From Candidatus Leptofilum proximum (GTDB lineage: Bacteria > Chloroflexota > Anaerolineae > Promineifilales > Promineifilaceae), in contig JADJXK010000002.1 in NCBI GenBank assembly GCA_016710325.1, positions 946,622 through 1,010,621 of the forward strand: a stretch of 64,000 nt of DNA, given 5' to 3'. The notes under the pieces were generated by a model that did not search any database, was not told where the DNA came from, and saw only the letters and a list, made by a program, of their open reading frames with translations. Positions 1 through 64,000 of the stretch are shown piece by piece (the stretch's first letter is position 1; every line of letters starts with the position of its first letter). Both the position numbers and the translations under genes were made by a program.

Positions 1-695
1 GCAATATCCTGCTCATCGCCGACGTTGCCCCTCGGGAGATCGACCCGATGCCGTTTGCGCTGCTCGTGACCAGCCTGCTGCTCTGGTGGAGCGTGTATCG
101 TTACTATTTGCTGGACCTGGCGCCAGTGGCCAGAAACATTTTTGTCGACATCATGCCCAACGGCATGTTGGCCATCGACAGCCGGGAGCGAATTATTGAC
201 ATCAACCAGACGATGTTAGAGGTGATTGGCGCCGAAGCCAGCCAGGTGATTGGACGGCCGTTCACCCAGGTGCTCAAGCCGTGGAAAAACATTGTCCAGG
301 ATTTGTGCAGTGACTCAAACGTTGGCACAGAAATTACGGTTGGCGACCGGTGGTTTGACCTGCAAGTTAAACCGCTCACCAACCGCAAGGGTGAAATGCA
401 GGGGCGGATCATCGTCTTGCATGATATTTCCCAGCGCAAACAGATGGAAGCAGAGCGCGAACGGCTCATTGTCTCCCTGCAAGACGCCCTGTCTGAGGTT
501 AAAAAGCTAAGCGGCCTACTGCCGATTTGCGCCAGCTGCAAAAAAATCCGGGATGATCAGGGGTATTGGCAGGATGTGGCTGTGTACATCCGCAACCATT
601 CTGAGGCGGAATTTACGCATGGCATGTGCCCAGAATGCATGGAAGATTTTTATAAAGAGCTGGCCAACAAGCGCCAAGGCAAAAAGAAGGAGTAG
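1..695 (+). CDS. PAS-domain sensor protein, 5' end cut by the window edge, with a C-terminal CxxC...H...CxxC module instead of a kinase
   Basis: Frame 3 is open from nt 3, and the listed ORF is 48..695. It has a TM-like segment (ALLVTSLLLWWSVY) and a PAS-like core (MLAIDSRERIIDINQTMLEVIG...GRIIVLHDISQRK). The tail reads LLPICASCKKIRDDQGYWQDV...HGMCPECM. Confidence 0.75.
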   Translation, partial: NILLIADVAPREIDPMPFALLVTSLLLWWSVYRYYLLDLAPVARNIFVDIMPNGMLAIDSRERIIDINQTMLEVIGAEASQVIGRPFTQVLKPWKNIVQDLCSDSNVGTEITVGDRWFDLQVKPLTNRKGEMQGRIIVLHDISQRKQMEAERERLIVSLQDALSEVKKLSGLLPICASCKKIRDDQGYWQDVAVYIRNHSEAEFTHGMCPECMEDFYKELANKRQGKKKE

Positions 696-710
696 TTGGC
701 AAAGTGAATT

Positions 711-1736
711 CTATGCCTGAGAGACCTTGTGGTGAACTTTAAGTAGGGCAATTTTGGTGCTGTGATTAAAGGGGGCGGGGTCGGTGATGGGCGGCGTGAT
801 TTGGGTGTGGGGGTAGCCGGTGCAATCCTCCGGCACGGGGATAAGCTGCTCAATTGCCACGTAGCCGTCGGCGCAGAGCGCTTCCAGCTCGGCCAGGTAT
901 GCGGCCCCGCTGACGTACAGGGCGTTGTTGATGGCGATGATGTGGCCGTTGTGGCGGACTAACGGCCGTACCTTGTTCACCAATCTTGCCATCCCCTGGT
1001 TTAAATCCACGGTACCTGCGGCCGTTTGCGCAAAAAACGGCGGGTCGAGAAAAACACAGTCAAACTGCTCGCCCGCCCGCTTGAGCTGGCTCATCTGCCG
1101 CCAGAAGTCCCCCGCCTGGAACAACTTTCGGTCAATGGGAAACCCATTCAGCGTGTACGAGGTTTTGGCCACATTGAGAAAGCGCTTGTTCAGGTCGGTG
1201 TGCAGTACGCGACTGGCTCCGGCAGCGGCGGCAGCGGCAGCCGCTGCCGCCAAGCCCAGGCTGCCGGTGTAAGCAAAGGTGTTCAGCACATCTTTCCCTG
1301 CCAGATTATCCAGCGCCCAGCGGCGTACATTGCGTGTGTCCAGGTAAAAGCTGGCGTCCTGGTTCAGCGTCAGGTCCAGGGCATAACGCACGCCATGCTC
1401 GCGGATTTTGGTCGTAAGCTGGCTGCCCCACACCAGCACGCCGCGCTTCTCATCGTCAGAGCCATTGCGGGATTTAACCAGAACCGCTTGCAGCCAGGGG
1501 AACTGCCCAAGCAGCAGCTGCTGAACGGCCGTTAACACCTCATGCAGTTCTTCCGGCGGATCGGCGTAGTTGTAGAGAACGGCCGTTGCCCCAAACAGCT
1601 CCACCACCAGCTGCGGGCACCCTTCCACGAAGCCGTTGAACAGGCGCACGGCCGTTTCGTGCCGCTCGTCCAGCAAAGGCAGACGAGCCTGGAGGGAATG
1701 GGTTAGGTACGGCCGTACTGTTTCTGGATCGATCAT
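711..1736 (-). CDS. Class I SAM-dependent methyltransferase, RlmI/RlmK-like (rRNA m5C type)
   Basis: 341-aa ORF. It has an RlmI-like layout with FAYTGSLG...GAS (motif I region) and the FLDPPFF catalytic motif. It contains a 10-Ala run. Confidence 0.8.
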   Translation of the reverse strand: MIDPETVRPYLTHSLQARLPLLDERHETAVRLFNGFVEGCPQLVVELFGATAVLYNYADPPEELHEVLTAVQQLLLGQFPWLQAVLVKSRNGSDDEKRGVLVWGSQLTTKIREHGVRYALDLTLNQDASFYLDTRNVRRWALDNLAGKDVLNTFAYTGSLGLAAAAAAAAAAGASRVLHTDLNKRFLNVAKTSYTLNGFPIDRKLFQAGDFWRQMSQLKRAGEQFDCVFLDPPFFAQTAAGTVDLNQGMARLVNKVRPLVRHNGHIIAINNALYVSGAAYLAELEALCADGYVAIEQLIPVPEDCTGYPHTQITPPITDPAPFNHSTKIALLKVHHKVSQA

Positions 1737-1746
1737 GGTCTGAACT

Positions 1747-3726: not shown

Positions 3727-4581
3727 ATGGGTTTTCCGACTTGGACATTGATTGGCATGGGCGTTACGGCCGTTCTTGCCCTGCTTATGACGATACTGGC
3801 CTACCTGGCCCAATCGCCGCGCGCCCTCATGCGCCTGGGACTGGTGGGCCAGCGGCTGGATTTGCGCGTGAAGCTGTTTACCGGCTACGCGCTGGCCAGC
3901 CTCATCCTGATGCTGGGCTTTTTTCTAGCCGGGGTGCCGTTGAACGCCCCCGCCACCGTGGCCGAAGCCACACCGCTCAGCGAAACGGCCGTTCTCGAAC
4001 CCACCTCAGCCGTCAGCGAAAGCGGCGCCATGGGCGCTTTGCCGCCATCATCCGAACCAACCAACTTTGTCATTATTAACGAGGATGAGCCGGAAGACGC
4101 CAGCACTACCCAAACCCCGTCCAGCGGTGCGTTTGGCGGACCGCCGCCGGGCAGCGTGGATGAGGTGGCCACGGAAGAAGTAACCCCCTCTGCCACACCG
4201 GAACAAGCCGGACCTTCCCCGACTCCCGGTGATACCAGCGAGACGGCAACGGCCGTTCCCACCAACGCCCCAGCCGACGCCAACACCGCCACTCCTAGCC
4301 CCAGCCCCACGGCAACGGCCACACCGCTGCCCACGGCCACGCCTACACCCACCATCACCCCAACGCCGATTGCTGGCGCTACGGGCACTATCAGCACCAA
4401 CGGCAGCACTCTCTGGGTGCGGCGTTCGCCGGGTGGCCAGCAGCTGGTGATTGTGCAGAATGGTGAGCTGGTGATTGTGGAAAACGGCCGTGCCAATCAG
4501 GGCGGCATCCTCTGGCGTGAAATTCGCACCGTGAACGGTATCGTGGGCTGGGTCCAGGCTGAGTTTCTAGAAGAGCAATAA
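3727..4581 (+). CDS. Membrane-anchored protein with a Pro/Thr/Ala-rich linker and a C-terminal bacterial SH3 domain
   Basis: Two TM-like segments, a low-complexity PT-rich linker, and a C-terminal TLWVRRSPGG...VIVENGRAN...WREIRTVNGIVGWVQAEFL region (SH3b-like). An alternative TTG start lies at 3709. Confidence 0.7.
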   Translation: MGFPTWTLIGMGVTAVLALLMTILAYLAQSPRALMRLGLVGQRLDLRVKLFTGYALASLILMLGFFLAGVPLNAPATVAEATPLSETAVLEPTSAVSESGAMGALPPSSEPTNFVIINEDEPEDASTTQTPSSGAFGGPPPGSVDEVATEEVTPSATPEQAGPSPTPGDTSETATAVPTNAPADANTATPSPSPTATATPLPTATPTPTITPTPIAGATGTISTNGSTLWVRRSPGGQQLVIVQNGELVIVENGRANQGGILWREIRTVNGIVGWVQAEFLEEQ

Positions 4582-4632
4582 TGTGACCAACTGGCCCGCT
4601 GTGCGTCCAAACACAAGGGAAGCAAAAAAGTC

Positions 4633-4670
4633 ATTGAGTAATTGGGTGATTAAGTAGTTACCCAATTACC
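4633..4670. repeat. Short copy of the GTAATTNN-family hairpin
   Basis: GTAATTGGGT ... ACCCAATTAC (10-bp stem) followed by TTTT. It lies downstream of the SH3-protein gene. Confidence 0.75.
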
Positions 4671-4704
4671 TTTTGAATCACCTACAGTTCAAGGAGACCA
4701 TTTC

Positions 4705-5043
4705 ATGAACCATCCAAAATACGAAGTTTACCAGGGCAATAACGGCCAGTTTTACTTCCGGCTGACCGCCCGCAACGGACAAAACATTTTGTCCAGCGAG
4801 GGATATGCCTCCAAGACAGGCTGCAAAAGCGGGATCGAATCGGTCAAAAACAACGGCACCAACGACGAGCGATTTGAGATTAAGGAAGCAGCCAACGGCA
4901 AGTTCTACTTCAGTTTGTTGGCAGCTAACGGGCAGGTGATTGGCAAGAGTCAGATGTACGCTACCGCAGAAACGTGTCAGGGCGGCATTGAGGCCGTGCA
5001 ACGTGTTGCCGCCGAAGCGGGCGTGGAAGACACGACGGCTTAA
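4705..5043 (+). CDS. YegP/UPF0339 (DUF1508) family protein, tandem repeat
   Basis: Two repeats of the NGQFYFRL.A.NGQ.I..S.GY.....C..GIESV pattern. AAGGAG SD lies upstream of the ATG. Confidence 0.85.
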   Translation: MNHPKYEVYQGNNGQFYFRLTARNGQNILSSEGYASKTGCKSGIESVKNNGTNDERFEIKEAANGKFYFSLLAANGQVIGKSQMYATAETCQGGIEAVQRVAAEAGVEDTTA

Positions 5044-5048
5044 GAGTC

Positions 5049-5116
5049 AGTAAAAAGTGAGATGTGAACGTGGCCCTTACTTCTCACTTTTTACTTTTTA
5101 CTTTTCACTCTTCTCC
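5049..5116. repeat. Hairpin plus tandem CTTTTNA-type units between convergent genes
   Basis: AGTAAAAAGTGAGA / TCTCACTTTTTACT (14-bp stem), then TTTTTAC TTTTCAC TCTTCTC. It overlaps the last codons of the ABC1 kinase gene. Confidence 0.8.
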
Positions 5117-6960
5117 CTTCCTTTTCGGTTCAAATAGAGCAGCGTCCCCGACAGCATCCCCGCGGCGCCTAAAATACTCCAGCCCAGCTGGCCAATTCGC
5201 TTTTCGATGCGTTCGTACTGGCGCAGGGTGTCCCGGTCTGCCTGCACGCGCAGACGGCCGTTTTCTGCCAGCGTCAGCAAACGTTGTACCTGGGCGGGGG
5301 TGTTGAGATACGGCCGCACCAGCTGCCACGCCGTCTCCAGGCCAAAACGCTGGCCCTCGCGGCTGGACACCAGCGCCTCGCCATACTTTTCGATGAAATA
5401 CCACGGGTTGATCTGCTCATCCAGCTGCGCCACCAGGCCAGAAACAATGCCCAGCGCCCGCCCCAGGTAAATAAAATCCTGGGGAATTTGGAAAGGAAAA
5501 TCAAACAACAGATCGCGGAACTCCTGGCCCAGCTCTTCAATTTCCGCCGGGTCGGGACGAGCCAGGTCCAGCAAGTTGCGGCCCCAGATGCGGTCCAGCA
5601 CCGCATTTTGCGCCTCGGCGATACGCACCAGGTCGGCGCCGGGCAAAAAGAAGCCCAGGTTTTGGTATGCCTCGGTGAGCTTACGGCCGTCGCGCTGCGT
5701 CACGCTCACCAACACCTGGCGCAAATTGTCACCCATCAACGAGGGCACCCGCCCCACCATGCCAAAATCCACAAAAATGAGCCAGAACGGCCGTCCGCGG
5801 CCACGATCATCGTCATCTTCAGGCGGCCAGGGGAGATCTGAGCGGGGGCGCACAAACAGGTTGCCAGGATGTGGATCAGCATGGAAAAAACCTTCACGAA
5901 AAATCTGGTCGAAGTAAGTATCCAACAGCGTCTCGGCCACCTCGCGTGGATCGATGTCAACAGCTTCCATCTCAGCCACGTTGGTAATTTTGATGGCCTC
6001 CACATTTTCCATGACAATGACCCGATCCGTACAATGCTGGCGGTAGATGGCCGGAATGTAAATGCGCTGGCTGTCGGCGTACATCTCGGCAAAACGCTCG
6101 GCGTTGTCCACCTCGGCCCGATAATCCAGCTCTTCCCACAGTGTTTTGGCAAACTCCTCCATCAGCGCGGGCACATCGGCGCGGCGGGCAATGGGCTTGT
6201 AGCGCATCGTCCAGCGGGCCACGATGCGCAGCGCTGCCAGATCCGTCTCAACGATGGCAGCAATGTTCGGCCGCTGCACTTTGACAACAACGGCCGTTCC
6301 CCGTTCTTCAGACTCATCTCTGGGGTGCAGCCAGGCGCGATGCGTTTGGCCCAGGGAAGCAGCGGCCATCGGCTTCTCTTCAAACTGGACAAAACGCGGG
6401 TAGATGTCGCCCAATTCGGCCTGGATGACGGCAAGAATGCGCCAGGCAGGTTCCGGCGTCACCTCGTCCTGCAGCCCTTGCAGCTCTTCGGTAATTTCCG
6501 GCGGCAGCACATCCACCCGGGCGCTGAGGAACTGCCCCAGCTTGATCATCACCCCGCCCATCTCCAGGGCCAGTTCACGAAAACGATGCGCCCAGCGGCG
6601 GAAGCGGCGCGGGCGGCTCTGGCGCACGGCCGCTTTCACCAGCGGCAGCCGTCCCCCAATAATGTCCCACACGACGAGATGCAAAATCACCCGGGCAAAA
6701 AAAGTGAGAATACGGCGGAAACGGCCGTCAGCACGGAAGTTTTGTGCAGGCGGCTCTGGGGGAGTAGAAGTTGCTTCTGTGGGTGGTCCCGGCTGCAGGA
6801 AACGGCCGTTTGGCGAGTAGGTGCCATTTAAATGCGGCTTTTGCTCAGCCACATCGTATTCAGTTGGCGCCCCGTCGTGCGGTCCGGCCATGTGTGTAAC
6901 CTTTTCTAGCAAAACACAAAACAAATGGCCGGTTGAAAAACGGCCGTTCATGCCCACCAT
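5098..6960 (-). CDS. ABC1/UbiB-family atypical kinase with a C-terminal TM anchor
   Basis: MIKLGQFLSARVDVLPPEI, AAASLGQTHRA, VVVKVQRP and FHADPHPGNL motifs typical of the ABC1/AarF/UbiB family. GGAG lies 4 nt before the ATG at 6960. Confidence 0.88.
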   Translation of the reverse strand: MVGMNGRFSTGHLFCVLLEKVTHMAGPHDGAPTEYDVAEQKPHLNGTYSPNGRFLQPGPPTEATSTPPEPPAQNFRADGRFRRILTFFARVILHLVVWDIIGGRLPLVKAAVRQSRPRRFRRWAHRFRELALEMGGVMIKLGQFLSARVDVLPPEITEELQGLQDEVTPEPAWRILAVIQAELGDIYPRFVQFEEKPMAAASLGQTHRAWLHPRDESEERGTAVVVKVQRPNIAAIVETDLAALRIVARWTMRYKPIARRADVPALMEEFAKTLWEELDYRAEVDNAERFAEMYADSQRIYIPAIYRQHCTDRVIVMENVEAIKITNVAEMEAVDIDPREVAETLLDTYFDQIFREGFFHADPHPGNLFVRPRSDLPWPPEDDDDRGRGRPFWLIFVDFGMVGRVPSLMGDNLRQVLVSVTQRDGRKLTEAYQNLGFFLPGADLVRIAEAQNAVLDRIWGRNLLDLARPDPAEIEELGQEFRDLLFDFPFQIPQDFIYLGRALGIVSGLVAQLDEQINPWYFIEKYGEALVSSREGQRFGLETAWQLVRPYLNTPAQVQRLLTLAENGRLRVQADRDTLRQYERIEKRIGQLGWSILGAAGMLSGTLLYLNRKGREKSEK

Positions 6961-7039
6961 TATACTCCGAACCGGCAGATAGTGCGTATTTGGGTGGGGT
7001 TACGGCCGTGTTCAAACAATTTCCCCACGTTGATGTAAA

Positions 7040-7127
7040 TAGCCATCCAGATTTCATAGGGTTCGGTGTGAAGCGCGAAACGTGAAACGTGATGCCTCTC
7101 TGGTCACGTTTCACGTTTCCCGCATCA
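7040..7127 (-). repeat. GTGAAACGT-family dispersed element, copy 1
   Basis: GAAACGTGAAACGTGA / TCACGTTTCACGTTTC (16-bp stem) plus a conserved flank. Confidence 0.8.
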
Positions 7128-7164
7128 CAACTTTCAACCTCGTGAATTTCCAAAGAACTGCCAA

Positions 7165-7198
7165 TAAAAAAGGCTTCATCCGCAGCGGATGAAGCCTT
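7165..7198 (-). terminator. Intrinsic terminator downstream of tRNA-Glu
   Basis: A perfect 14-bp inverted repeat, AAGGCTTCATCCGC / GCGGATGAAGCCTT, followed on the minus strand by TTTTTTAT. Confidence 0.6.
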
Positions 7199-7202
7199 GT
7201 GA

Positions 7203-7275
7203 TGCCCCGTAGGGGACTCGAACCCCTGTTTTAGCCTTGAGAGGGCTACGTCCTGGGCCACTAGACGAACGGGGC
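7203..7275 (-). tRNA. tRNA-Glu (anticodon CUC), CCA not encoded
   Basis: Reverse complement is GCCCCGTTCGTCTAGTGGCCCAGGACGTAGCCCTCTCAAGGCTAAAACAGGGGTTCGAGTCCCCTACGGGGCA. It has a 7-bp acceptor stem, a TAGCC/GGCTA anticodon stem with loop CTCTCAA, and a GGTTCGAGTCC T-arm. Confidence 0.9.
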
Positions 7276-7311
7276 GTTTGTGAACCCGGTTATGGGATAA
7301 ACTGCGAGCAA

Positions 7312-7340
7312 ATTCTAGCAAACGGCCGTCCCCGTGTCAA
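7312..7340 (-). promoter_or_regulatory. Sigma-70-like promoter for tRNA-Glu
   Basis: On the minus strand: TTGACA, a 17-nt spacer, then TAGAAT. The -10 element ends about 36 nt upstream of the tRNA 5' end. The spacer contains an ACGGCCGT copy. Confidence 0.55.
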
Positions 7341-7355
7341 AGAGTTGGTGATTCT

Positions 7356-8318
7356 GTGGCCACATGCCATAATCCGCCGCTCATGGCAGCATCACACAGC
7401 AACACACCGGCTGAAACGGCCGTCTCCCCCGCCTGGCACTGGCTTAGCCTGGCCCTCATCGCTCAACTGGGCTGGGGCGCCTATCCCGTCCTCCTGCGCT
7501 ATCTACAAACCGTCAGCCTGCTCCCCAGCCTCTCCTTATTGGCAGTCGGCAACTTTTTGGTGCTGCTCCTGGTGCTGGCAGTGCGCTGGCGGCAGGTGGA
7601 ATGGCCCATCTTCCGGCTGCCGCTGCTGTGGCTGTTTGGCGGCCTGGTGGTGCTGCGCGGCATCACCAACCTGTTGGCCACACGCTACACCCTGGCCATC
7701 TACGCCCAGCTCATCTACCTGATGACCCCGTTCATCGTGGCGCTGCTGAGCCGGCTGGTGCTGCACGAGCAGCTGCCGCGCCACACCTTCAAGGCGCTGA
7801 CGCTCTGCCTGGTGGGGGCGCTGCTGCTGATGGCCGGAAATTTTGGTGCGGTGGGGAGTGGAACGGCCGTCTCCCGCAACGATCTCCTGGGCATTTCCCT
7901 GGCCCTGGCCAGCTGCCTCTTCCTGGCCCTATACATGCTCGTCACCCGGCGCACCGCCCAACACCAGGCATCGGGCGATTCCCTGCTCATCGTGCATCTG
8001 ACATCACTGTTCCTCTTTTCGGGTGGGGCCAGCCTGGTCGTGGGTGAAACCTGGCAGCCTTGGACGCAGCTGGGGCCGCTGGACTGGTTTGTGTTTGGCC
8101 TGTTTGCGTTGGGGGTGCTGCTGGGGGCTAACCTGGGGCAGATTCGCTCCATTCAAAAGCTGGGCGCGCCGCTGGTGAGCAGCATGATGGCCACCCGGCT
8201 GGTAAGCGCCCTGCTGTTTGGCGCGTTTTTGCTCAACGAGCGCCTCTCCTCAGGCTGGCAGCTGCTGGGCGCCGCCATCGTTTTTGTGACGCTGACCTGG
8301 TACCTGCGCCAGCGCTGA
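7356..8318 (+). CDS. EamA/DMT-family transporter
   Basis: A 320-aa protein with about 10 TM segments and a duplicated EamA-like organisation. Confidence 0.8.
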   Translation: MATCHNPPLMAASHSNTPAETAVSPAWHWLSLALIAQLGWGAYPVLLRYLQTVSLLPSLSLLAVGNFLVLLLVLAVRWRQVEWPIFRLPLLWLFGGLVVLRGITNLLATRYTLAIYAQLIYLMTPFIVALLSRLVLHEQLPRHTFKALTLCLVGALLLMAGNFGAVGSGTAVSRNDLLGISLALASCLFLALYMLVTRRTAQHQASGDSLLIVHLTSLFLFSGGASLVVGETWQPWTQLGPLDWFVFGLFALGVLLGANLGQIRSIQKLGAPLVSSMMATRLVSALLFGAFLLNERLSSGWQLLGAAIVFVTLTWYLRQR

Positions 8319-8324
8319 GCTTGC

Positions 8325-9902
8325 TCAGGGAACCGGCAGCCAGACGGTGAATGTAGTGCCGCGACCCGGTTCGCTTTCCATGGCAATGTGGCCGTGATGG
8401 GCCTGCACAATTTGCTGGGCAATACACAGCCCCAGCCCCGTACCCACGATGTTTCCCTGCTCCGCCGGGCGCCCCCGGAAAAACCGATCAAAAATGTGTG
8501 CCTGATCTTCCGGGGCAATGCCCGGACCGTTATCCTGCACCTGCACCATCAGCCACTGCCGGTTTTCTTCTTCATACCGTGCCGCTTCCAGGTTGATCGT
8601 TGTGCCGGTTGGTGTATAGGCAAAAGCGTTATCCAGCAGCTCGCTAAAGACCTGCCGCAGTCGGGCACGGTCGCCTTTGAAAAGGGGTAAATTGTCTGCC
8701 GCGGTAAAGTTTAGGGTGTGCTGCGTCAGCTGAGCGCGTCTCTGATTGTTCGCCACGATTTGGCGCAGCATTTCGATCAGGTCAATAGAGCGCCACTCCA
8801 AAACACTCTCGGAGCTTTCCAGGCTGGCCAGCTCCAGGATATCCTGAACCAGGTGCTCCAGCCGTTCCGCCTGCTGGCTCAAGGTGTGCAGGTAGTGGGC
8901 CGCCTTGCCATTGCCCAATCCATCTTCAACCAGCTGGGTGTACAGTTTGATGTTGGTCAGCGGCGTACGCAGCTGGTGTGAAACGTTGGTAATGAAGCTG
9001 TACTGCGCCTTGTCCAACGCCTTAAAGCGGCTGATGTCTTGGTGGCTGGTAACATAGCCGGTGATACGGCCGTCTTCAGCCAACATCGGTACAATGGTTA
9101 GAACCGTGGGGTAAGTACGGCCGTCCTGGCACAACCCAATCACTTCCCCCGACCACACTGCGCCTGCGGCAAACGCCTGCGCCTGCGCCTGGAAATCCCG
9201 CGGGGCAAAATCAAACATCACCTCAAACGACTGCGTCTGCGCTTCCGCCAGGCTAAACATCGTCAGGTTGGTAAAGGCGGGGTTCACATACACGATTTTC
9301 TTATTGGCATCGGCCATGGCCACCGCTTCGGCAATAGAACCGAGCACCGCTTCCAGCTTCTCTTTTTCGGCGGCCAAATCGGCCGTGTGCTGCCGCACCT
9401 GCTGCTCCAATGAGCTGTTCACCTGCCGCAGCGCCGACTCCGCTTCCTTGCGCCAGCGAATATCCCGGGCAAAGTTGATCAACACATCGCGCCCCTGCCA
9501 GAACACCATGCGGCTGCTCACCTCCACCGGGATCAACGTGCCATTTTTGTGCCGGTAAGTAGTTTCGTAGAAAAAAGTGCCAGACACAGACGACTGCCAC
9601 GACGTTTCGGCTTCATCATCGTCCAGGGAACGCGGCATTTCCACCTGATCCAGCCCCAGCTGACACAGCTCGTCGCGGCGGTAGCCCAGGCGGCGCGCCG
9701 CGTTGGGGTTAGCCTCTAAAATTTTCGTGGTGTAGGGATCGACGATGAGGATGCTCTCGCCGGAATTTTCAAACAAGAAATCGCCGTAAGCAGCTGAAGC
9801 GGCCGACTGGTTTTTGGCCTCCAGTTCAGCAATCCGCTGTCGCAGTGCGCCAATTTCCTGTTGCAAGCGTTCATGAGACTGAGATTTATTCAAGAAACTC
9901 AT
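8325..9902 (-). CDS. PAS-domain sensor histidine kinase (cytoplasmic)
   Basis: A coiled N-terminus and two PAS-like regions. H-box FITNVSHQLRTPLT, N-box LLDNAFAY, and G-boxes QDNGPGI and GTGLGL. Confidence 0.9.
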   Translation of the reverse strand: MSFLNKSQSHERLQQEIGALRQRIAELEAKNQSAASAAYGDFLFENSGESILIVDPYTTKILEANPNAARRLGYRRDELCQLGLDQVEMPRSLDDDEAETSWQSSVSGTFFYETTYRHKNGTLIPVEVSSRMVFWQGRDVLINFARDIRWRKEAESALRQVNSSLEQQVRQHTADLAAEKEKLEAVLGSIAEAVAMADANKKIVYVNPAFTNLTMFSLAEAQTQSFEVMFDFAPRDFQAQAQAFAAGAVWSGEVIGLCQDGRTYPTVLTIVPMLAEDGRITGYVTSHQDISRFKALDKAQYSFITNVSHQLRTPLTNIKLYTQLVEDGLGNGKAAHYLHTLSQQAERLEHLVQDILELASLESSESVLEWRSIDLIEMLRQIVANNQRRAQLTQHTLNFTAADNLPLFKGDRARLRQVFSELLDNAFAYTPTGTTINLEAARYEEENRQWLMVQVQDNGPGIAPEDQAHIFDRFFRGRPAEQGNIVGTGLGLCIAQQIVQAHHGHIAMESEPGRGTTFTVWLPVP

Positions 9903-10090
9903 CTTATTCCACCTGATTTGCCGGTGCTCGGTGTATGACAGCGTTTTGGCTTCTAAGTTGAGCAGAGTTTATCAATTTTTTGGGGAAGAGGTTGAAAACA
10001 CACAACGAGCCAATCTCTCCGCGACTATTTTCTGCGGGAAACGGCCGTCTGTCGATAGCATATCCGTCCTAAGTTGTAACCACCAGGCAT

Positions 10091-10118
10091 TAGACAATCA
10101 CCTAATCCAGGCTATAAT
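10091..10118 (+). promoter_or_regulatory. Candidate sigma-70-like promoter of the carboxypeptidase gene
   Basis: TAGACA, a 16-nt spacer, then TATAAT. This leaves a leader of about 55 nt ending in AAAAGGAG before the GTG start. Confidence 0.45.
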
Positions 10119-10176
10119 CTGCCAGATTCACGGTTGTTTTGTATGCAGTTTCCACCCCCCACAAAAGGAGTAATCG

Positions 10177-11850
10177 GTGACCCAAGAGATACGATTTGAC
10201 ACTTATTACCGCTACGACGCGCTGACGGCCTTCCTCAAGCAGTGGGCCGAGGCTTACCCCAAGCTGTGCCGCCTGGAGAGCATCGGCCAGAGCTTCGAAG
10301 GACGCGACATCTGGCTCATGACCCTCACCAACAGCGAAACCGGGCCAGACACGGAAAAACCAGCTTATTGGGCCGACGGCAACATTCACGCCACAGAAGT
10401 TTCGGCTTCCACCGCATCCCTGTACCTCATCAACAAGCTGCTGACGCAGTACGGCCAGGATGACAAGGTAACCTACGCCCTGGACACCCGCGCCTTCTAC
10501 GTGGTGCCGCGCCTGAATCCAGACGGCGCTGAGCTGGCCCTGGCCGAACGGCCGCGCTACATCCGCAGCAGCACGCGCCCCTACCCGCGCATGGACAAGC
10601 TGGACGGCCTGCACCAGGAAGACGTGGATGGCGACGGCCGTATCCTGCAAATGCGCGTTAAAGACCCTAACGGCAGCTGGAAAGCCCATCCCGATGACCC
10701 TCGCCTCATGATCCCGCGCGAGCCGGATGAAGCGCCCGGCGGCGACTTCTACCGGGTTTTGCCCGAAGGCCTCATCCAAAATTACGACGGCGTGCTTATC
10801 AACATGGCGCCGCCGGTGGAAGGGCTGGACCTGAACCGGCAGTTCCCCGTTTTTTGGGAACCCAACCAGCGCGGCGCGGGCCATTACCCTGGCAGCGAAC
10901 CGGAAACGGCCGCACCCATGAAATTTATCGCCAACCACCCCAACATTACCGGTTCGGTGAGCTTCCACACCTTCAGCGGCGTCTACCTGCGCCCGCCAAC
11001 CAAAGGCGCCGACGACACGCTGCCCACGCAGGACCTATACACCTACAAAAAGCTGGCCCAGACGGCCGAAAAGATGACCGGCTACAAAGGCGTCTCCGTC
11101 TTCCACGACTTTAAATACGATCCCAAGGAGTACATCAAGGGCACGTTTGACGACTGGATGTACGAGTACCTGGGCCTCTATGCCTGGACCTGCGAAATCT
11201 GGAGCGTGCAAAAGCAGGCGGGCATCACCGATTACAAGTACATGGACTGGTTCCGTGAGCATCCGCTGGAGGATGACATGGCCATCATGAAGTGGAACGA
11301 TGAGGTTCTGGAAGGCAAAGGGTACGTAGATTGGTACGAATTTGACCATCCGCAGTTGGGCCAGGTGGAGCTGGGCGGTTGGGACTTTTTTGTCACCTGG
11401 CGCAACCCGCCCTACCAGCTGCTGGAAAAAGAGGTTGCTCCCCTGGCCGATTTTGCCCTTTACTCCTGCCTGGTTTCGCCCAAATTGGATTGGCACAGCG
11501 TAGAAAAATCGTCGCAGGGTAAGGTGCACCGGATAACGGCCGTTGTGCACAACACCGGCTGGCTGCCCACCAACGTCTCCCAGCAGGCACTCAAAATGAA
11601 CGTCGTGCGCGAACTGGAAGTGGACATCACCCTGCCCGACGGCGCCAAACTGATCACCGGCAAGCCCAAGACGATGCTGGGCCAGCTCAGCGGCCGCGAC
11701 AACAAAAGCACCAGCACCATCTGGGGCGGCGATCCCACCAGCGAGCGGGCCAAGGTGGAATGGGTCATTGAAGCCGAACCAGGCAGCGAAGTGGAAATTA
11801 CGGCCGTTCACCCCCGGGCGGGCACCATTCGCAAGTCGCTTACTTTGTAG
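10177..11850 (+). CDS. M14-family zinc carboxypeptidase
   Basis: GNIHATEVSAS (HxxE zinc motif), VVPRLNPDG and FHTFSG (second His region). GTG start preceded by an SD. Confidence 0.85.
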   Translation: MTQEIRFDTYYRYDALTAFLKQWAEAYPKLCRLESIGQSFEGRDIWLMTLTNSETGPDTEKPAYWADGNIHATEVSASTASLYLINKLLTQYGQDDKVTYALDTRAFYVVPRLNPDGAELALAERPRYIRSSTRPYPRMDKLDGLHQEDVDGDGRILQMRVKDPNGSWKAHPDDPRLMIPREPDEAPGGDFYRVLPEGLIQNYDGVLINMAPPVEGLDLNRQFPVFWEPNQRGAGHYPGSEPETAAPMKFIANHPNITGSVSFHTFSGVYLRPPTKGADDTLPTQDLYTYKKLAQTAEKMTGYKGVSVFHDFKYDPKEYIKGTFDDWMYEYLGLYAWTCEIWSVQKQAGITDYKYMDWFREHPLEDDMAIMKWNDEVLEGKGYVDWYEFDHPQLGQVELGGWDFFVTWRNPPYQLLEKEVAPLADFALYSCLVSPKLDWHSVEKSSQGKVHRITAVVHNTGWLPTNVSQQALKMNVVRELEVDITLPDGAKLITGKPKTMLGQLSGRDNKSTSTIWGGDPTSERAKVEWVIEAEPGSEVEITAVHPRAGTIRKSLTL

Positions 11851-11943
11851 AATTCGGGTCTTTCGGATTTCGTAGGACTTGGCATGAAACGTGAAGCGTG
11901 AAACGTGATTTTTCCTGGTCACGCTTCACGTTTCACGCATCAC
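11851..11943 (-). repeat. GTGAAACGT-family dispersed element, copy 2
   Basis: GAAACGTGAAGCGTGAAACGTGA ... TCACGCTTCACGTTTCACGC plus the conserved flank CGGATTTCGTAGG. It lies between convergent genes and overlaps the stop codon at 11940. Confidence 0.8.
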
Positions 11944-14063
11944 TCCTCTGCCCCCACTCCCGGCGGCAAGGGCACCACATACACCATCGCCAACGCCTCG
12001 CCGCTGCCCACTTCGACCGGCAGCAGCAGGCGCACCTGCTCCAGCAGGCACAAACTCTCCGCTTTGGCTTCGCAGTAGTAGATAACCAAATCAGCTTGCA
12101 GCTCGCCCGCGCCGCTCACCATGAGCGGAATTTGCAGCGGGAAGCTGGGCGCCACCTGCTGCACCGTGGCGCTGTCTGGATCGAGCGACAAGCCACCTGA
12201 AGCGGAAATTTCAGCCAGGAAGGGGGCGATGTCGTTAAATTTGTAGCCGTCAGGCAGATCGATTTGCAGGTTTAGCGTCGTTGCGCCAGCGGCCACGGCT
12301 TGCGCTTCCAGCGTCACGGTCTTGCCGGTGAACTCGCCATCGGCTGCCCGCGTGAGCAAGCCTTGCGGGTCGGCCAGGACGAGCGTGCTGACCGTGCCAT
12401 CAGCCAGACTGGCTATGCGAATAACGTGGTTGTTGGTGTCGGCGATGTAGAGACGGCCGTTGCCCAAACTCAACCCACCCGGTTCGTCAAACAGCGGTTC
12501 AGCACCGTCGCGCCAGCCGTCTTCGCCCGTGCCCAGGAAGGAGGTGCTGGTTTGTGCGGCCGGATCGATGACCTTAATTTTGTGGTTGTAGGTGTCGGCC
12601 ACGTACAGCAGGCCGTCGGCATAAACCACACCCAGGGGATGCTGGAGGCGCACCTCGCTGCCACGGCCGTCCACGTCGCCAAAGTCAAACAGGCCGGTGC
12701 CCACGATGGTTTGCAGCTCACCGCCCTCGCCCAGGCTGGCGGTGCGAATAGCACTGGCTTCACTGTCGGCGACGTAGAGCAGGCGGCCATCGCTGGCCAG
12801 GCCGCTGGGCTGGTTCAGGCCGCCGCTGAGCAGCGGCCCATCAACCAGTTCTTCGCGGCCGGACCCGGCAAAAACTTGCACAATCCGGGTCGCCGGATTG
12901 TACTGCCACAGCTGGTGCTGCCCGGCCATGGCGATGTAGACGATGCCGTCCACGGCCAGCACGTCCCATGGCGAGTTGAGGGCTACGGCCGTTCCCGTCC
13001 CTTCCAGCGGACCATAGCTGCCGTGACGGCCGTTGCCCGCCACCGTCTCCACAGTTTGCGCGGCTAAGTCTATTTTGCGAATGGCGTGGTTTTCCGTGTC
13101 CGCTACGTACAGCGTGTTGGCATCGGCCAGGGTGAGGCCCTGGGGACGGAAAAATTGGGCCGTTTCATAGCTGCCATCCTGAAGGCCAGAACGGCCGCTG
13201 CCAATCACCGCCTGCACCACGCCGTCCAGATCCGTCACCACAATGCGGTTGTGGTTGGAGTCGGCGATGAAGAGACGGCTGTTGGCCTCATCGGCCAGCA
13301 CTTTGCCGGGGAACAGCAGGGGCGAGTTGACCAGGTTCTCACGCTCCAGCTTCAGGTCCAGCGGCGTGCGGTCGATCAGGTCGCGGGCGTCAAACTCGGC
13401 AATCATGCCGATGATCACCTGGTTGAACAGGTCAAAAATGCCCTCGCCAGAGTGGAAACCCAGCACGTTACCTTCAGGATCGATGAGGACAAAGGTAGGC
13501 CAGGCATTGGCGCCATAGGTGCGCCAGACCTCAAAGTTGTTGTCGTTGATGACGGGATGTTCCAGCTCGTAGCGCAAAATGATCTGGCGGATGTTGTCCG
13601 TTTCGCTCTCGTTGACAAACTTGGCCGAATGCACGCCAATCACCACCAGCTCATCGGCGAACTTTTCTTCCAGCCGCTTCAACTCCGGGATGACGTGTAT
13701 GCAGTTGATGCAGCCGTAGGTCCAGAAGTCCAGCAGCACAATTTTGCCACGCAGTTCGGCCATGGTTAACGGCCGTTCCACGTTCAGCCAATCCAATCCG
13801 GGCGGGAAGTCCGGCGCAGGGATATTTCCGGCATAAGGCCGGGCGTCTGGTGAGGGTTCAGTCACGGGAACCTCCTGTGGGGCAGATGCCGTCGGCGCAG
13901 GTGGCGGACTGGTAGTCGTGGCCACCGCCACGCTGGCGGATGAGGTGGGGGCAACAAATGCCGTGGCCGCTGCTTCTGGCGTTTCGTCCGCAGTGGGCGG
14001 GGTTTGGCAGGCGGTTAGCCAGATGAGCAAGAAGATGGGGATGAGGAACGGCCGTATTTTCAT
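11940..14063 (-). CDS. Lipoprotein with a thioredoxin-like (redoxin) domain fused to an NHL-repeat beta-propeller
   Basis: Lipobox LTAC. VLLDFWTYGCINCIHVIPELK (CxxC). Multiple repeats of the LYVADT.NH.I type (NHL). Confidence 0.85.
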   Translation of the reverse strand: MKIRPFLIPIFLLIWLTACQTPPTADETPEAAATAFVAPTSSASVAVATTTSPPPAPTASAPQEVPVTEPSPDARPYAGNIPAPDFPPGLDWLNVERPLTMAELRGKIVLLDFWTYGCINCIHVIPELKRLEEKFADELVVIGVHSAKFVNESETDNIRQIILRYELEHPVINDNNFEVWRTYGANAWPTFVLIDPEGNVLGFHSGEGIFDLFNQVIIGMIAEFDARDLIDRTPLDLKLERENLVNSPLLFPGKVLADEANSRLFIADSNHNRIVVTDLDGVVQAVIGSGRSGLQDGSYETAQFFRPQGLTLADANTLYVADTENHAIRKIDLAAQTVETVAGNGRHGSYGPLEGTGTAVALNSPWDVLAVDGIVYIAMAGQHQLWQYNPATRIVQVFAGSGREELVDGPLLSGGLNQPSGLASDGRLLYVADSEASAIRTASLGEGGELQTIVGTGLFDFGDVDGRGSEVRLQHPLGVVYADGLLYVADTYNHKIKVIDPAAQTSTSFLGTGEDGWRDGAEPLFDEPGGLSLGNGRLYIADTNNHVIRIASLADGTVSTLVLADPQGLLTRAADGEFTGKTVTLEAQAVAAGATTLNLQIDLPDGYKFNDIAPFLAEISASGGLSLDPDSATVQQVAPSFPLQIPLMVSGAGELQADLVIYYCEAKAESLCLLEQVRLLLPVEVGSGEALAMVYVVPLPPGVGAEE

Positions 14064-14261
14064 AATTGCACTCCAGGTTTATTATTTCCTCTGAAACTCT
14101 GAAGTTTCTGGGGAAATGTCTTAAGCATACCGCATGTGCGCGTGATTGGTCTGAAAAAATCCTTATGAAAATCTTAAACCTGATGAAAGAATTAAAGCTC
14201 TGCTCCATTTCCTCGCGAAAATTTCTGTCTGGCCACGAACCCGCTATAATCCGGTCCAACT

Positions 14262-16448: not shown

Positions 16449-16525
16449 CGATGCATACTACGCGGTTTTCAATCAAGTTCTCTTTTTGTCTCGAAATATG
16501 GCCGCATCGTTGGCGCGATTAACAG

Positions 16526-17555: not shown

Positions 17556-17575
17556 TTTTTGTCTAGCCGCAGGGT

Positions 17576-18709: not shown

Positions 18710-18769
18710 ATAAACCTGTATTGCAAGTGCCTGTCACTTTTTGAAACTGACCGGCACCTTTGCGCTCAT

Positions 18770-19768: not shown

Positions 19769-19855
19769 TTTCTAGCTCCTAATCTGTGGGGCAGCACCAA
19801 ACATGCTGCCAATATCTCTGCCCGTGAGTTTACCGGACGGGGAGAAAAAAATCAC

Positions 19856-19937: not shown

Positions 19938-19942
19938 AGCGG

Positions 19943-21836: not shown

Positions 21837-21837
21837 G

Positions 21838-61235: not shown

Positions 61236-62201
61236 ATGAGCAAATTTGCGGCTTTTGAAGAATTTGAAGATTACCAGTATCAAGACAACAGTCGGGAAGC
61301 CCGGCGCAGCCGGACCAAGCCTAACAAAAACAAGCAAGTGCGGAACGGCCGTCCCCAACAAACCATGCAGGATATCCGCGAAATGGATGACGGCATCGAA
61401 ACCTGGGTGCCCAGCTATGCCAGGGCACTCGATCCGCAGCACCACGAGCGGCAGTGGGTCATTGAATCCGTTGGTCCCTTTTACCGTGACCAAATCGTCA
61501 CCGACGTGACCCGTCTGGTGAAAGGGGGCAAAGAGGCCAATGTCTATGCCTGCACCGGCCATCCAGCCACAGGTATAGACCTCATTGCAGCCAAACTGTA
61601 CCGTCCGCGAGAACTGCGCCACCTGAAAAATGACGCCATCTACAAGGCAGGCCGCCAGCTGCGGGATGCAGACGGTAAAGAGATCAAGGGGCGACGTGTC
61701 AAGCTGGCGCTGAGTAAAAAAACCAGCTATGGCAAGTCCGTTGATATTCAATGGTGGATTGGCAATGAATACCGCACCCAAACCCAGTTGTTTGAGGCCG
61801 GAGCCGATGTGCCCAAACCCATTGCCCACCAGGGCAACACCGTCCTGATGGCCTACATTGGCGATGAATATGGCCCGGCACCCACGCTGAGCGAGGTGCG
61901 CCTGCCCCGCGAGGAAGCAGCGCCGCTGTTCCGGCGCATCATGGACAATGTGGCGCTAATGCTGGACAACCACCTCATCCACGGCGACCTGTCGGCCTAT
62001 AACATTTTGTACTGGGATGGCGCAGTGTACCTGATCGACTTCCCGCAGATGGTGGAGGCGCGACACAACCCGCATGCTTACGAGCTGCTGGAGCGGGACA
62101 TCACCCGCGTATGTGATTACTTTGCCGGTTATGGCATTAAAACCAATCCGGTGGCGCTGACGCACAGCCTGTGGGATCCGTATATGGGGCCAGGTGGATA
62201 A
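61236..62201 (+). CDS. RIO-type (RIO1 family) atypical serine protein kinase
   Basis: GGKEANVY (P-loop-like), LIHGDLSAYNIL (catalytic loop), IDFPQ (metal-binding loop) and a basic N-terminal extension. Confidence 0.8.
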   Translation: MSKFAAFEEFEDYQYQDNSREARRSRTKPNKNKQVRNGRPQQTMQDIREMDDGIETWVPSYARALDPQHHERQWVIESVGPFYRDQIVTDVTRLVKGGKEANVYACTGHPATGIDLIAAKLYRPRELRHLKNDAIYKAGRQLRDADGKEIKGRRVKLALSKKTSYGKSVDIQWWIGNEYRTQTQLFEAGADVPKPIAHQGNTVLMAYIGDEYGPAPTLSEVRLPREEAAPLFRRIMDNVALMLDNHLIHGDLSAYNILYWDGAVYLIDFPQMVEARHNPHAYELLERDITRVCDYFAGYGIKTNPVALTHSLWDPYMGPGG

Positions 62202-62206
62202 GACAA

Positions 62207-64000
62207 ATGACACGAGAAATGAGTAACTGGGAGCTGCTGACGCAATATTTACGGCCGTACACCGCCCGTCTCTTAGGGCTGAGCACCCTGCTGGCCGTCA
62301 GTATTGCCCTCCAGCTCTACGGCCCCCAGGTCATTCGTGACTTTTTGGATGCGGCGCAAAGCGGTACGGCCGTACGGCCGTTGGTCACCCTGGGCGCGCT
62401 GTTTTTTGTGGTGACCGTGGCGCAAAAGGCCGTGGAGCTGTGGACGACTTACCTGAGTGAAGACCTGGGTTGGGCGGCCACCAACGGCCTGCGCGCCGAC
62501 CTGGCTGCCCACACCATGCGGCTGGACATGGGTTTCCACAAGCTGCAAACCCCCGGCGAACTCATCGAGCGGATCGATGGCGACGTGAGCAACCTGGCCG
62601 AGTTTTTCTCGCGGCTGGTGATCCGGGTGTTGGGCAACGCGGTGCTGGTCATTGGCATCCTGGTGCTGCTGTTCCGCGAGGATTGGCGCATTGGGCTGGT
62701 GGGGCTGGGCTACGGCCTGCTCACGCTGGGGCTGCTGCAAATCATCCGCAAACCGACGGTGAGCGTCTGGCGCGAGGTGAGCAAGGGATATGCCAGGCTG
62801 CACGGCTACGTTGAGGAACGCATCGGCGGCACGGAAGACATTCGCGCCAATGGCGGCGAGCCGTACGTGTTCCACAAGCTCTACCCGCTGCTGGCCGACG
62901 TGGCCAAAAGCCGCGTCAAGGCCGACGTGATCGGTGGTTACACCTTCAGCAGCAGCTACATGCTGTACGTCCTAGCGATTGTGGTCACGCTGGCGCTGGC
63001 GGGAACGTTTTTCCTGCAAGGGCAGATCACCATTGGCACGCTGTTTCTGCTGGTGGCCTACGTGCGGCTGATGGAATCGCCAATTAAGTACATCCGGCGG
63101 CAAATCAGCGACATGCAGCGCGCCGTGGCCAGCATCGGCCGTATCAACGAGTTTATGCGCCTGGAACCAGATGTGAAGGAGTCCGTAACTGCCAGTTTGC
63201 CCGATGGGGCAACGGCCGTTGCCTTCCACGGTGTCTCGTTTGCCTATAAAGACCGGTTGTCGGTAGTCGGTGAACGGTTATCGGTGAACGGATTGCCGAT
63301 TACGGATAACCGATTACCGCTTACCGATAACGGATTACCGAACGTGCTGCACGATGTCACCTTCACCCTGGAGGCGGGCAAAGTGCTGGGGCTGCTGGGG
63401 CGGACGGGCAGCGGCAAGACGACTCTGACGCGGCTGCTCTTCCGGCTGTACGACGTGGATGCGGGGCGCATCACGCTGGACGGCACCGACCTGCGCCAGG
63501 TGAGCCTGGCCGACGTGCGGCAGCACATCGGCATGGTGACCCAGGACGTGCAGCTGTTTGCCGCCACCGTGCGGGACAATCTGACGCTGTTCCGCCGCTA
63601 CGATCCAGACAAACCACCGATTCCCGACAGTGAGATCGAGGCCGCCCTGCACACGCTGGGTCTGGGCGACTGGCTGGCCAGCCTGCCCGACGGCCTGGAC
63701 ACGGAACTAAAAACGGGCGGGCAGGGGCTGTCGGCGGGGCAGGCGCAGCTGCTGGCTTTTACGCGCGTCTTTTTGCGCAATCCGCAGCTGGTGATTCTGG
63801 ACGAGGCCTCATCTCGGCTGGACCCAGCCACGGAGCAGCTTTTAGAACGAGCGATTGACACGCTGCTGACCGGCCGTACCGCCATCATCATCGCCCACCG
63901 CCTGCACACCGTGCAGCGCGCCGACGACATCTTGATTTTGGAGAACGGCTGCATCCAAGAACACGGCCCCCGCTTACACCTATTCAACAATCCCAATTCC
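62207..64000 (+). CDS. ABC exporter, fused permease/ATPase, paralog of 20037..21836; 3' end beyond the window; carries an in-frame repeat insertion
   Basis: Hand translation from the ATG at 62207 gives [18 protein letters not shown]...[14 protein letters not shown]. The NBD has [31 protein letters not shown] and AHRL. The frame stays open to nt 64000. It is not in the ORF track because no stop lies in the window. Confidence 0.88.
63254..63343. repeat. Periodic repeat, CGGTAAN family, inside the ABC CDS
   Basis: Thirteen successive 7-nt units: GGTTGTC GGTAGTC GGTGAAC GGTTATC GGTGAAC GGATTGC CGATTAC GGATAAC CGATTAC CGCTTAC CGATAAC GGATTAC CGAAC. They translate as [29 protein letters not shown]. 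Confidence 0.85.

Follow-up and report, generated by a model that had tools for sequence, protein, structure and literature searches.

HIP1, the octamer GCGATCGC of cyanobacteria, reportedly goes back to Robinson in 1995. About 30 years on, the role of this highly iterated palindrome (HIP) is still under debate, with a repair ratchet, chromosome structure and transformation as the candidates, and the work on it rests on one phylum. HIP1 and the alternate HIPs of cyanobacteria (Elhai, 2015, PMC4390886; Xu, Lawrence and Durand, 2018, PMC5861425) are over-represented 15- to 300-fold, at 300 to 2700 copies per Mb, and HIP1-type features include one or several orphan DNA methyltransferases for the inner palindrome(s) and a quasi-periodic distribution at the 10–90 kb scale (PMC4390886, PMC5861425). 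Here, a comparable 8-base palindrome, ACGGCCGT, was analyzed in a stretch of 64,000 nt of Candidatus Leptofilum proximum (assembly GCA_016710325.1, contig JADJXK010000002.1, positions 946,622–1,010,621 of the forward strand), hereafter called the window. The host group, Promineifilaceae with Ca. Leptofilum and relatives (Chloroflexota, Anaerolineae), consists of filamentous wastewater and soil bacteria. The results support the view that ACGGCCGT, which is specific to a Chloroflexota clade, is an element of HIP type with a new sequence in a new phylum. A first-pass annotation of the window, made from the letters alone, had proposed such a HIP-like reading, and every HIP property that can be tested from sequence was found. 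It had also considered the element as novel, which holds within the searchable literature, as no prior description of ACGGCCGT was found in 7.7 million PMC papers and bioRxiv, including searches for CGGCCG, HIP or palindrome with Chloroflexi and relatives.

In the window, ACGGCCGT occurs 127 times (1984 per Mb, about one copy per 500 bp), close to the approximately 125 copies first counted by hand. The k-mer comparison that had been suggested as a check opposes these 127 copies to 1.4 in dinucleotide-preserving shuffles of the window (mean 1.38, maximum 6), 1.7–6 under Markov models of order 0 to 3 and 2.6 after codon-order shuffling, Markov orders 5–6 coming near the observed count solely because such models contain the motif. 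The observed-to-expected ratio (O/E) is about 90 under the dinucleotide model, and the five commonest 8-mers of the window are ACGGCCGT and words overlapping it. One-mismatch variants are concentrated at the outer positions, with 18 copies of ACGGCCGC, 12 of GCGGCCGT, 9 of TCGGCCGT and 8 of ACGGCCGA, and at most 3 for each inner-position variant; the earlier counts were right except for TCGGCCGT, which had been given as 7. The bias of the flanks toward A on the 5' side and T on the 3' side, also reported earlier, is confirmed by A at −1 in 63 and T at +1 in 66 of the 127 sites, and AACGGCCGTT is present 34 times. At this short scale, the spacing of the sites resembles a Poisson process (coefficient of variation of 0.96 vs 0.99 for random placement). 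The copies start at the following positions of the window:

Starts of ACGGCCGT, part 1: 254, 962, 1525, 1579, 1648, 1709, 3766, 3985, 4249, 4484, 5254, 5683, 5787, 6290, 6721, 6802, 6940, 7002, 7322, 7416, 7863, 9066, 9117, 10041, 10634, 11536, 11800, 12453, 12663, 12985, 13026, 13769, 14048, 15357, 15834
Starts of ACGGCCGT, part 2: 16961, 16989, 17340, 17506, 17908, 18311, 19175, 19946, 20313, 20577, 21733, 21751, 22955, 23160, 23312, 23655, 23751, 24677, 25671, 25956, 26014, 27785, 27907, 28909, 29419, 30560, 30986, 31292, 31586, 31616, 31794
Starts of ACGGCCGT, part 3: 32064, 32390, 35098, 35484, 36152, 37426, 37816, 38143, 38192, 38751, 39334, 39653, 40968, 41105, 41243, 41589, 42505, 42654, 42740, 43518, 43740, 44544, 44709, 45092, 45344, 45679, 46427, 46733, 46999, 47246, 47264, 47309, 47475, 47606
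Starts of ACGGCCGT, part 4: 49193, 49293, 49305, 50388, 50738, 50999, 52161, 52793, 53213, 53525, 53763, 53780, 55056, 55398, 55784, 57253, 57349, 58002, 58155, 60240, 60473, 60674, 61345, 62251, 62366, 62374, 63212

ACGGCCGT is a DNA-level element, and not a coding, RNA-structure or mobile-repeat element. Indeed, coding and non-coding DNA are equally populated, with 1.98 and 2.02 sites per kb, respectively, according to a crude gene map in which the segment 62141–64000 is miscalled, affecting four sites only. Based on the same map, 89% of the sites lie inside genes, and the 113 sites in coding sequences are distributed over the three frames as 60, 37 and 16, in line with the earlier statement that all frames are used. 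Shuffling synonymous codons within genes left only 16.7 ± 3.6 of these 113 sites. At the peptide level, the proteins of the window contain 63 TAV tripeptides for 9.2 expected, the permutations of TAV being found 4 to 13 times each, and 60 of the 63 are written ACGGCCGTN where codon usage predicts 20%. DGR and NGR are enriched about fivefold. An origin in codon or peptide usage was therefore ruled out by both the synonymous and the codon-order shuffles and by the codon occupancy of TAV. Conversely, the motif visibly shapes the proteome through its excess of TAV, DGR and NGR, and the peptides ETAVRL, GATAVL, LTAVQQ, ENGRAN and YLRPYT, previously listed as examples, are all present.

The anatomy of the site was resolved on 643 pooled sites, which gave the consensus ggaA-ACGGCCGT-Ttcc, with C nearly excluded at −1 and G at +1. 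The constraint is nested, GGCC being the tightest, followed by CGGCCG, ACGGCCGT, AACGGCCGTT and ggaAACGGCCGTTtcc, and 646 of 990 CGGCCG cores are flanked by A and T. At every distance k, the complementarity of position −k with position +k equals the product of the marginal frequencies, hence the two half-sites are independent. Such independence is characteristic of symmetric recognition of duplex DNA and argues against a selected hairpin or a copied repeat. A hairpin or RNA structure was rejected on the same ground, all the more since stem stability leaves the constant polarity (5' G, 3' C) unexplained. A mobile repeat of the repetitive extragenic palindrome (REP) or miniature inverted-repeat transposable element (MITE) type was discarded as well, because the consensus does not reach past about ±4 nt and the arms are no more complementary than the marginals imply, and because the sites lie within conserved genes.

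To place the window in its clade, orthologous loci were collected from GTDB species representatives with one gene as anchor, and part of the window was aligned to its relatives:

14262..16448, plus strand: PBP2-type transpeptidase gene, used as anchor for the orthologous loci, with sites at 15357 and 15834
4262..27100, unstranded: stretch alignable to orthologous DNA of relatives, used for site conservation and for the comparison of flanks with and without a site

The 22 loci obtained (L001–L022) all belong to Chloroflexota/Anaerolineae metagenome-assembled genomes (MAGs) labelled Ca. Leptofilum, Promineifilaceae or “Ardenticatenaceae”, with 59–92% amino-acid identity for the anchor gene and a closest pair among the fetched loci not above 88% identity. 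Twenty of them carry 1.0–2.1 octamers per kb at a GC content of 44–61%, and O/E reaches 81–117 in distant clade members, whereas the octamer is nearly absent (0.07–0.22 per kb) from two outgroup-like relatives of 63.5% GC (L017 and L019), which have no substitute palindrome. Since these 20 loci come from independent assemblies, the enrichment is a heritable property of the clade, and a confinement to this window or an assembly artefact, which the first-pass annotation had named as a refuting case, does not hold.

The sites have kept their places through long periods of evolution, synonymous positions included, and have done so at the expense of protein change. In blastn alignments of 78–87% identity, 74% of the window sites are perfectly conserved in the partner vs 29% for arbitrary 8-mers, and the all-against-all Jaccard index of sites is 0.58 for a baseline of 0.25. 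Where the amino acid is conserved, codons are retained more often inside than outside the sites, i.e., 100% vs 26% for CGT, 100% vs 72% for GGC, 100% vs 65% for CCG and 86% vs 65% for ACG. The orthologue alignments proposed in the first-pass annotation thus reveal a retention above controls, synonymous positions included. Among 95 orthologous positions with one mismatch, 70 differ at position 1 or 8, mostly by an exchange of A and G, with hardly any differences in the central GGCC.

On each strand, the 5' flank of the chromosomal sites is G-rich and C-poor and the 3' flank is its mirror image, a GC-skew signature that is a new feature, missed by the first-pass annotation. Expressed as (G−C)/(G+C), the skew of the 5' flank is +0.52 at 3–4 nt from the site, about +0.3 at 5–10 nt, +0.23 at 11–15 nt, +0.17 at 16–21 nt, +0.12 at 22–33 nt and +0.06 at 34–60 nt, with a fitted decay length of 18.9 ± 3 nt. 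It was observed in the window and in every clade genome, those of 44% GC included, with confidence intervals clear of zero. Third codon positions are the strongest class (+0.60 upstream and −0.53 downstream for a baseline of −0.01), and the skew is visible at codon positions 1 and 2 and around 68 intergenic sites (+0.33, +0.21, +0.10) as well. It is absent at 13 other palindromic hexamers, at GGCC outside the core and around CGGCCG in the outgroups, and weak at CGGCCG cores without A/T flanks. A generic effect of palindromes or of coding context was therefore discarded, given its absence at the 13 other palindromes and its presence in intergenic DNA and at all codon positions. Replication-fork pausing and sense transcription were rejected too, as both are one-directional, yet both flanks are skewed in this window and in sense orientation.

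The gradient is linked to the full octamer. At orthologous positions without a site, the skew is gone (+0.03, +0.07, −0.01), and at those with a single mismatch the proximal skew is halved and the distal one is zero. In the comparison of site-bearing with site-lacking orthologous flanks, C>G dominates in the proximal part (246 vs 52), and C loss dominates in the distal part, with C>T at 483 vs 280, C>A at 176 vs 113 and T>G at 146 vs 94. We interpret the proximal layer as an extension of the recognized motif; in the distal layer, we see a substitution bias that differs between the strands and accompanies the intact octamer. The correlation of the two flanks' skews per site (r = −0.02) is uninformative given the sampling noise, and the comparison of old and young sites gave no clear result with 10 “young” sites.

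The same measurement was made for HIP1. On the plasmids pCC7120alpha of Nostoc and pSYSM of Synechocystis (L023 and L024; 74 sites), no skew was found beyond ±2 nt, and in 15 cyanobacteria-like metagenome contigs of chromosomal type (a subset of L061–L180; 159 sites) the skew was +0.13 at 3–10 nt (confidence interval 0.07–0.19), +0.04 at 11–21 nt and +0.06 at 22–40 nt. With +0.38 at 3–10 nt and +0.20 at 11–21 nt, the skew around ACGGCCGT is at least three times stronger than the faint skew of HIP1, which has the same sign. If the latter is real, a weak flank signature may be general to HIPs.

The octamer is not restricted to chromosomes, another new feature missed by the first-pass annotation. 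Scanning IMG/VR for paired 10-mers yielded 32 stretches, 18 of which carry the octamer at 1.2–3.7 per kb; ten viral or mobile contigs (L025, L026, L031, L035, L036, L047, L049, L051, L052 and L056) reach 1.7–3.7 per kb, with hosts inferred from the motif itself. One of them, L026, a 100-kb contig recorded as an uncultivated virus genome (UViG), encodes ParA-like, anti-repressor (Ant), lytic transglycosylase/tail and FtsK-like proteins, so that at least some of the octamer-rich contigs are genuine phage or mobile-element DNA; this contig may be a phage-plasmid or a conjugative element. The 357 mobile-element sites, found in 159 kb, share the proximal consensus (a motif of about 16 bp) and the outer-position variant pattern of the chromosomal ones. 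Their skew is +0.11 at 3–10 nt and about 0 beyond 10 nt, i.e., there is essentially no distal skew. Motif enrichment and distal gradient are thus separable, and the gradient either accumulates only in long-resident chromosomal sites or reflects a chromosome-specific function. A gradient that depends on the intact octamer, decays over about 19 nt and is confined to chromosomes constrains the possible mechanisms. Besides, the motif is a strong compositional marker that can help to bin Promineifilaceae contigs and to assign phages and mobile elements to hosts, and it could mark the hosts of phages and plasmids of this Chloroflexota clade.

These observations are best explained, with a probability that we put at roughly 0.55, by a HIP-type element which is maintained by a symmetric and sequence-specific process acting on DNA, probably one linked to methylation or repair. 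Such a link is the most economical reading, by analogy with cyanobacterial HIPs and from the geometry of the flank gradient. In this scheme, similar to what has been proposed for cyanobacterial HIPs, a resident DNA methyltransferase would probably act on the inner CGGCCG or GGCC of the sites. A sequence-specific repair or incision activity coupled to it would create and restore the sites, and repeated strand-specific processing from the site, in the 5' to 3' direction over a few tens of nucleotides, would leave a scar of C depletion in long-resident chromosomal copies. The 5' flank of each strand behaves as if it were often single-stranded and losing C, as would be expected from a nick at the site followed by 5' to 3' excision or resynthesis of the nicked strand.

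Several observations weigh against this explanation. The roughly 450 kb of clade DNA examined yielded neither a DNA methyltransferase nor a Vsr-type endonuclease or nickase; the 64-kb window contains no DNA methyltransferase, Vsr, nickase or competence gene, and a motif scan of all open reading frames (ORFs) of the window, the 22 loci and 18 viral loci did not reveal any 5-methylcytosine (m5C) methyltransferase, the xPPY matches being a carboxypeptidase, small-molecule methyltransferases and similar proteins. A highly conserved N6/N4 DNA methyltransferase of about 270 aa stands alone on an octamer-rich viral contig (L052, 9018–9839, minus strand) and is the one enzyme of cytosine-capable type detected on any octamer-rich contig. 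It belongs to a family of more than 7,500 relatives, the best 120 of which share at least 71% identity with it; these relatives adjoin an MvaI/BcnI-family endonuclease in 3 of the 4 places found on unrelated chromosomes (L058, L059 and L060), and octamers are lacking in all 4. It was thus rejected as the cognate enzyme, since it belongs to an MvaI/BcnI-type system unrelated to the motif, and it may be an anti-restriction methylase of the phage. Moreover, no specific depletion of the site's C>T deamination products was seen relative to a Markov expectation that is contaminated by the motif itself, hence there is no classical signature of very short patch repair. The flank substitutions raise similar difficulties. 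The proximal C>G transversions look like motif extension or selection and not like damage, the distal asymmetry includes C>A, C>G and T>G and is therefore not simple deamination, and a scar of mutational origin alone could reach a skew of 0.4–0.6 at synonymous sites only if processing were very frequent, so that the magnitude and the mixed spectrum of the skew are not easily explained by deamination alone. Finally, positional conservation can equally reflect selection for some function as restorative repair, and selection has been argued in the case of HIP1 (Xu et al., PMC5861425).

A more specific mechanism, speculative and in our opinion unlikely to be correct, would make the octamer the entry point of a strand-incision system, in which either strand is nicked repeatedly and processed 5' to 3' over about 20–40 nt, leaving the complementary strand transiently single-stranded. 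This could serve MutH-like strand discrimination or a programmed nick-and-patch cycle; the same activity would generate and restore the sites, and mobile elements would gain them to pass as self. We know of no MutH in the phylum Chloroflexota. If true, the symmetric gradient of C depletion would represent a genomic “footprint” left by enzymes that process a HIP-type element, the first of its kind. Alternatively, ACGGCCGT could be an uptake or transformation-enhancing sequence which marks “self” DNA for the competence machinery or stimulates recombination, and which accumulates through uptake bias and recombination. About 2 sites per kb, clade specificity, use of all frames and distorted peptides do resemble uptake sequences (PMC2817400); in Synechococcus 7002, transformation rises more than 100-fold with methylated HIP1 (10.1101/2024.09.10.611283), the abundance of HIP1 correlates with proteins assigned by the authors to a type IV secretion system and interpreted as DNA-uptake machinery (10.64898/2026.06.24.733823), and type IV pili are encoded by most wastewater Chloroflexota MAGs (PMC10746286). 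With the recent proposals that HIP1 aids transformation, the HIP and uptake labels now overlap. This role nevertheless appears doubtful, because known uptake sequences are non-palindromic, phage and mobile contigs are equally or more densely populated, a flank gradient on chromosomes but not on mobile elements is not expected from uptake bias, and the window lacks competence genes.

The octamer might also be the absorbing state of a sequence-specific repair ratchet, i.e., a functionless by-product with no selected role, an “epiphenomenon” considered by Elhai for HIPs (PMC4390886). Equal coding and non-coding density, Poisson spacing, the spread to resident mobile elements and the cost to protein sequence would fit such a by-product, as would the outer-position variants in a two-step ratchet, but persistence across a deep clade of 44–61% GC and strong positional conservation are equally expected under selection, and under a slow drive, mobile elements, being short-lived, should lag behind their host in sites, which was not seen; this option is quite unlikely. 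We regard as very unlikely that the sites bind, or are cleaved by, an abundant symmetric chromosomal protein such as a nucleoid organizer or a type II topoisomerase, with the skewed flanks of about 80 bp being part of the selected surface. The symmetric extended motif with independent half-sites and the chromosome-specific flank preferences to about ±40 nt speak for it, together with the classic gyrase consensus, which has a GRYC center with purine-rich 5' and pyrimidine-rich 3' flanks. A role in chromosome structure was inferred for HIP1 by Xu et al. (PMC5861425), and strong gyrase sites follow a symmetric degenerate motif of 130 bp with a GC periodicity of about 10.75 bp in the arms (PMC6379681). 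Such a periodicity is not convincingly present here: the amplitude at 10 bp is 0.0047 for a null 95% limit of 0.0033, i.e., about 0.5% GC with a null that was not frame-matched, and period 15 is similar. Furthermore, an exact 8–10-mer at 2 per kb is unlike degenerate topoisomerase motifs, the Poisson spacing shows no regular phasing at this scale, and the mobile-element copies are equally enriched without arms. It is extremely improbable that the octamer results from the usage of codons, dipeptides or amino acids, that it is a mobile repeat dispersed in the genome (REP or MITE), or that it arose in the assembly. Although frame 0 (TAV) is the commonest and GGC, GCC and CCG are preferred codons, these origins are refuted by the shuffles (2.6 and 16.7 vs 113), by the single codon combination of 60 of the 63 TAV (expected fraction 0.20), by the equal non-coding density, by the lack of consensus past about ±4 nt with 89% of the sites in conserved genes, and by 20 independent assemblies.

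Some sites deserve a separate mention due to their position:

7322..7329, unstranded: intergenic copy within the 17-nt spacer of a sigma70-like promoter match (consensus match only), upstream of tRNA-Glu(CTC) at 7275–7203
19946..19953, unstranded: intergenic copy overlapping the −35-like hexamer TTGACG at 19943 (consensus match only), upstream of the ABC-transporter (ATP-binding cassette) gene 20037–21836
62366..62381, unstranded: two abutting copies, ACGGCCGTACGGCCGT, inside a plus-strand ABC-transporter paralogue, encoding T-A-V-R-P
1525..1716, unstranded: cluster of four copies (1525, 1579, 1648 and 1709) in the RlmI-like S-adenosylmethionine-dependent methyltransferase gene 711–1736 (minus strand), three of which encode TAV

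The first-pass annotation had already pointed to the first three. Its copy overlapping a −35 element stands as described, its promoter-spacer copy lies in the spacer but with coordinates shifted by 1 nt, and its adjacent pair does exist, at 62366–62381, where the two copies abut without the shared base that had been assumed. The putative promoter around the first copy (7340–7312, minus strand) reads TTGACA-17-TAGAAT, near consensus at 11 of 12 positions and with an extended −10 TG, which is notable for Chloroflexota; the tRNA-Glu(CTC) gene (7275–7203) lies downstream on the minus strand. Two long minus-strand genes carry no octamer, namely a Pyr_redox_2 dihydrolipoamide-dehydrogenase-like gene (1892–3379) and an amino-acid permease gene (32898–34871), for which 3.0 and 3.9 sites are expected (P = 0.05 and 0.02). 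The former matches the HIP-negative outgroup L019 with 75% nucleotide identity over 524 nt. Both genes may be recent acquisitions, or their lack of sites may be due to chance.

Other palindromes also deviate from expectation. GGGCCC (ApaI/Bsp120I-type) is almost absent, with 1 copy in the window (16690) for 47 expected (O/E of 0.02) and 16 for 218 expected in 395 kb of pooled clade DNA (L001–L022). This depletion suggests a long-standing restriction pressure at GGGCCC in the lineage. AGGCCT (O/E of 0.23–0.27) and CTAG (0.29–0.48) are depleted too, and TGGCCA is enriched 2.7-fold.

The gene content of the window is otherwise ordinary, with a kdpABC-kdpD/E operon, PBP2, ABC transporters, histidine kinases, an RlmI-like RNA methyltransferase and small-molecule methyltransferases. 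The high-affinity K+ uptake locus (23853–31923) is complete, comprising kdpA (30184–31923), kdpB (28119–30173), kdpC (27411–28004) and the sensor kinase gene kdpD (24581–27274) on the minus strand, and an OmpR-type response regulator gene (23853–24584) on the plus strand. A tandem DUF1508 protein is encoded at 4705–5043. Cyclic-nucleotide-binding is the sole Pfam family of a 1077-aa protein (51968–55201, plus strand), which it matches in two stretches, the best one near the C-terminus, and several sizeable ORFs of 540, 466 and 290 aa (45439–47061, plus; 59236–60636, minus; 3709–4581, plus) have no Pfam match. The ABC-transporter gene 62141–64000 (plus strand) extends past the right end of the window and is a paralogue of the pair at 20037–23740, with 66–75% nucleotide similarity to the relatives' orthologues of this pair; the long minus-strand ORFs overlapping it are spurious.

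Considering known systems, ACGGCCGT shares with Chi, with REP and bacterial interspersed mosaic elements (BIME) and with gyrase sites the over-representation of a short chromosomal motif, those motifs being connected with enzymes that process DNA. Chi has an asymmetric sequence whose orientation follows replication, so the comparison with Chi made in the first-pass annotation does not fit, as a palindrome is its own reverse complement and has no orientation. REP and BIME are extragenic hairpins with an extended consensus, unlike the present sites, 89% of which are in genes and which have no extended hairpin or repeat consensus. The DNA uptake sequences (DUS) and uptake signal sequences (USS) of Neisseriaceae and Pasteurellaceae are likewise lineage-specific, present at about one site per kb in all frames, and bias peptide content; however, they are non-palindromic 9–12-mers with a known or predicted pilin receptor, whereas ACGGCCGT is a perfect palindrome which is as dense or denser on phage and mobile-element contigs (1.7–3.7 per kb). 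To our knowledge, classical uptake sequences are not enriched on such elements. In Escherichia coli, CCWGG is the target of the Dcm methyltransferase, and its frequency is shaped by a sequence-specific nick by Vsr followed by a short 5' to 3' repair patch. A Dcm/Vsr-like geometry would expose the very strand that is C-depleted here, but site frequency in E. coli is affected modestly and not about 90-fold, and around ACGGCCGT the T-containing deamination products are not depleted and no Vsr gene was found in the approximately 450 kb.

The closest resemblance is to the HIPs. As a hyper-abundant GC-rich palindromic octamer, with an O/E of about 90 and about 2000 copies per Mb, ACGGCCGT falls inside the published HIP range, and its nested GGCC, CGGCCG and ACGGCCGT parallel GATC, CGATCG and GCGATCGC in HIP1. 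It has palindromic extensions, occurs in coding and non-coding DNA independently of frame and of codon usage, and extends over a clade of differing GC content with exceptional members devoid of the octamer (L017 and L019). Sites are conserved beyond controls, as in Xu et al. (PMC5861425), and one-off variants mostly affect the first or the last base, a pattern described for HIP1 by Elhai (PMC4390886). Unlike in HIP1, the outer bases are A/T and not G/C, so that Elhai's “GmeC” rule would have to act inside GGCC (PMC4390886). Given its different sequence and its different phylum, Chloroflexota, the element is thus HIP-like and not HIP1. An independent HIP of different sequence amounts to a second natural experiment, in which the genes co-occurring with both palindromes become prime candidates for the machinery.

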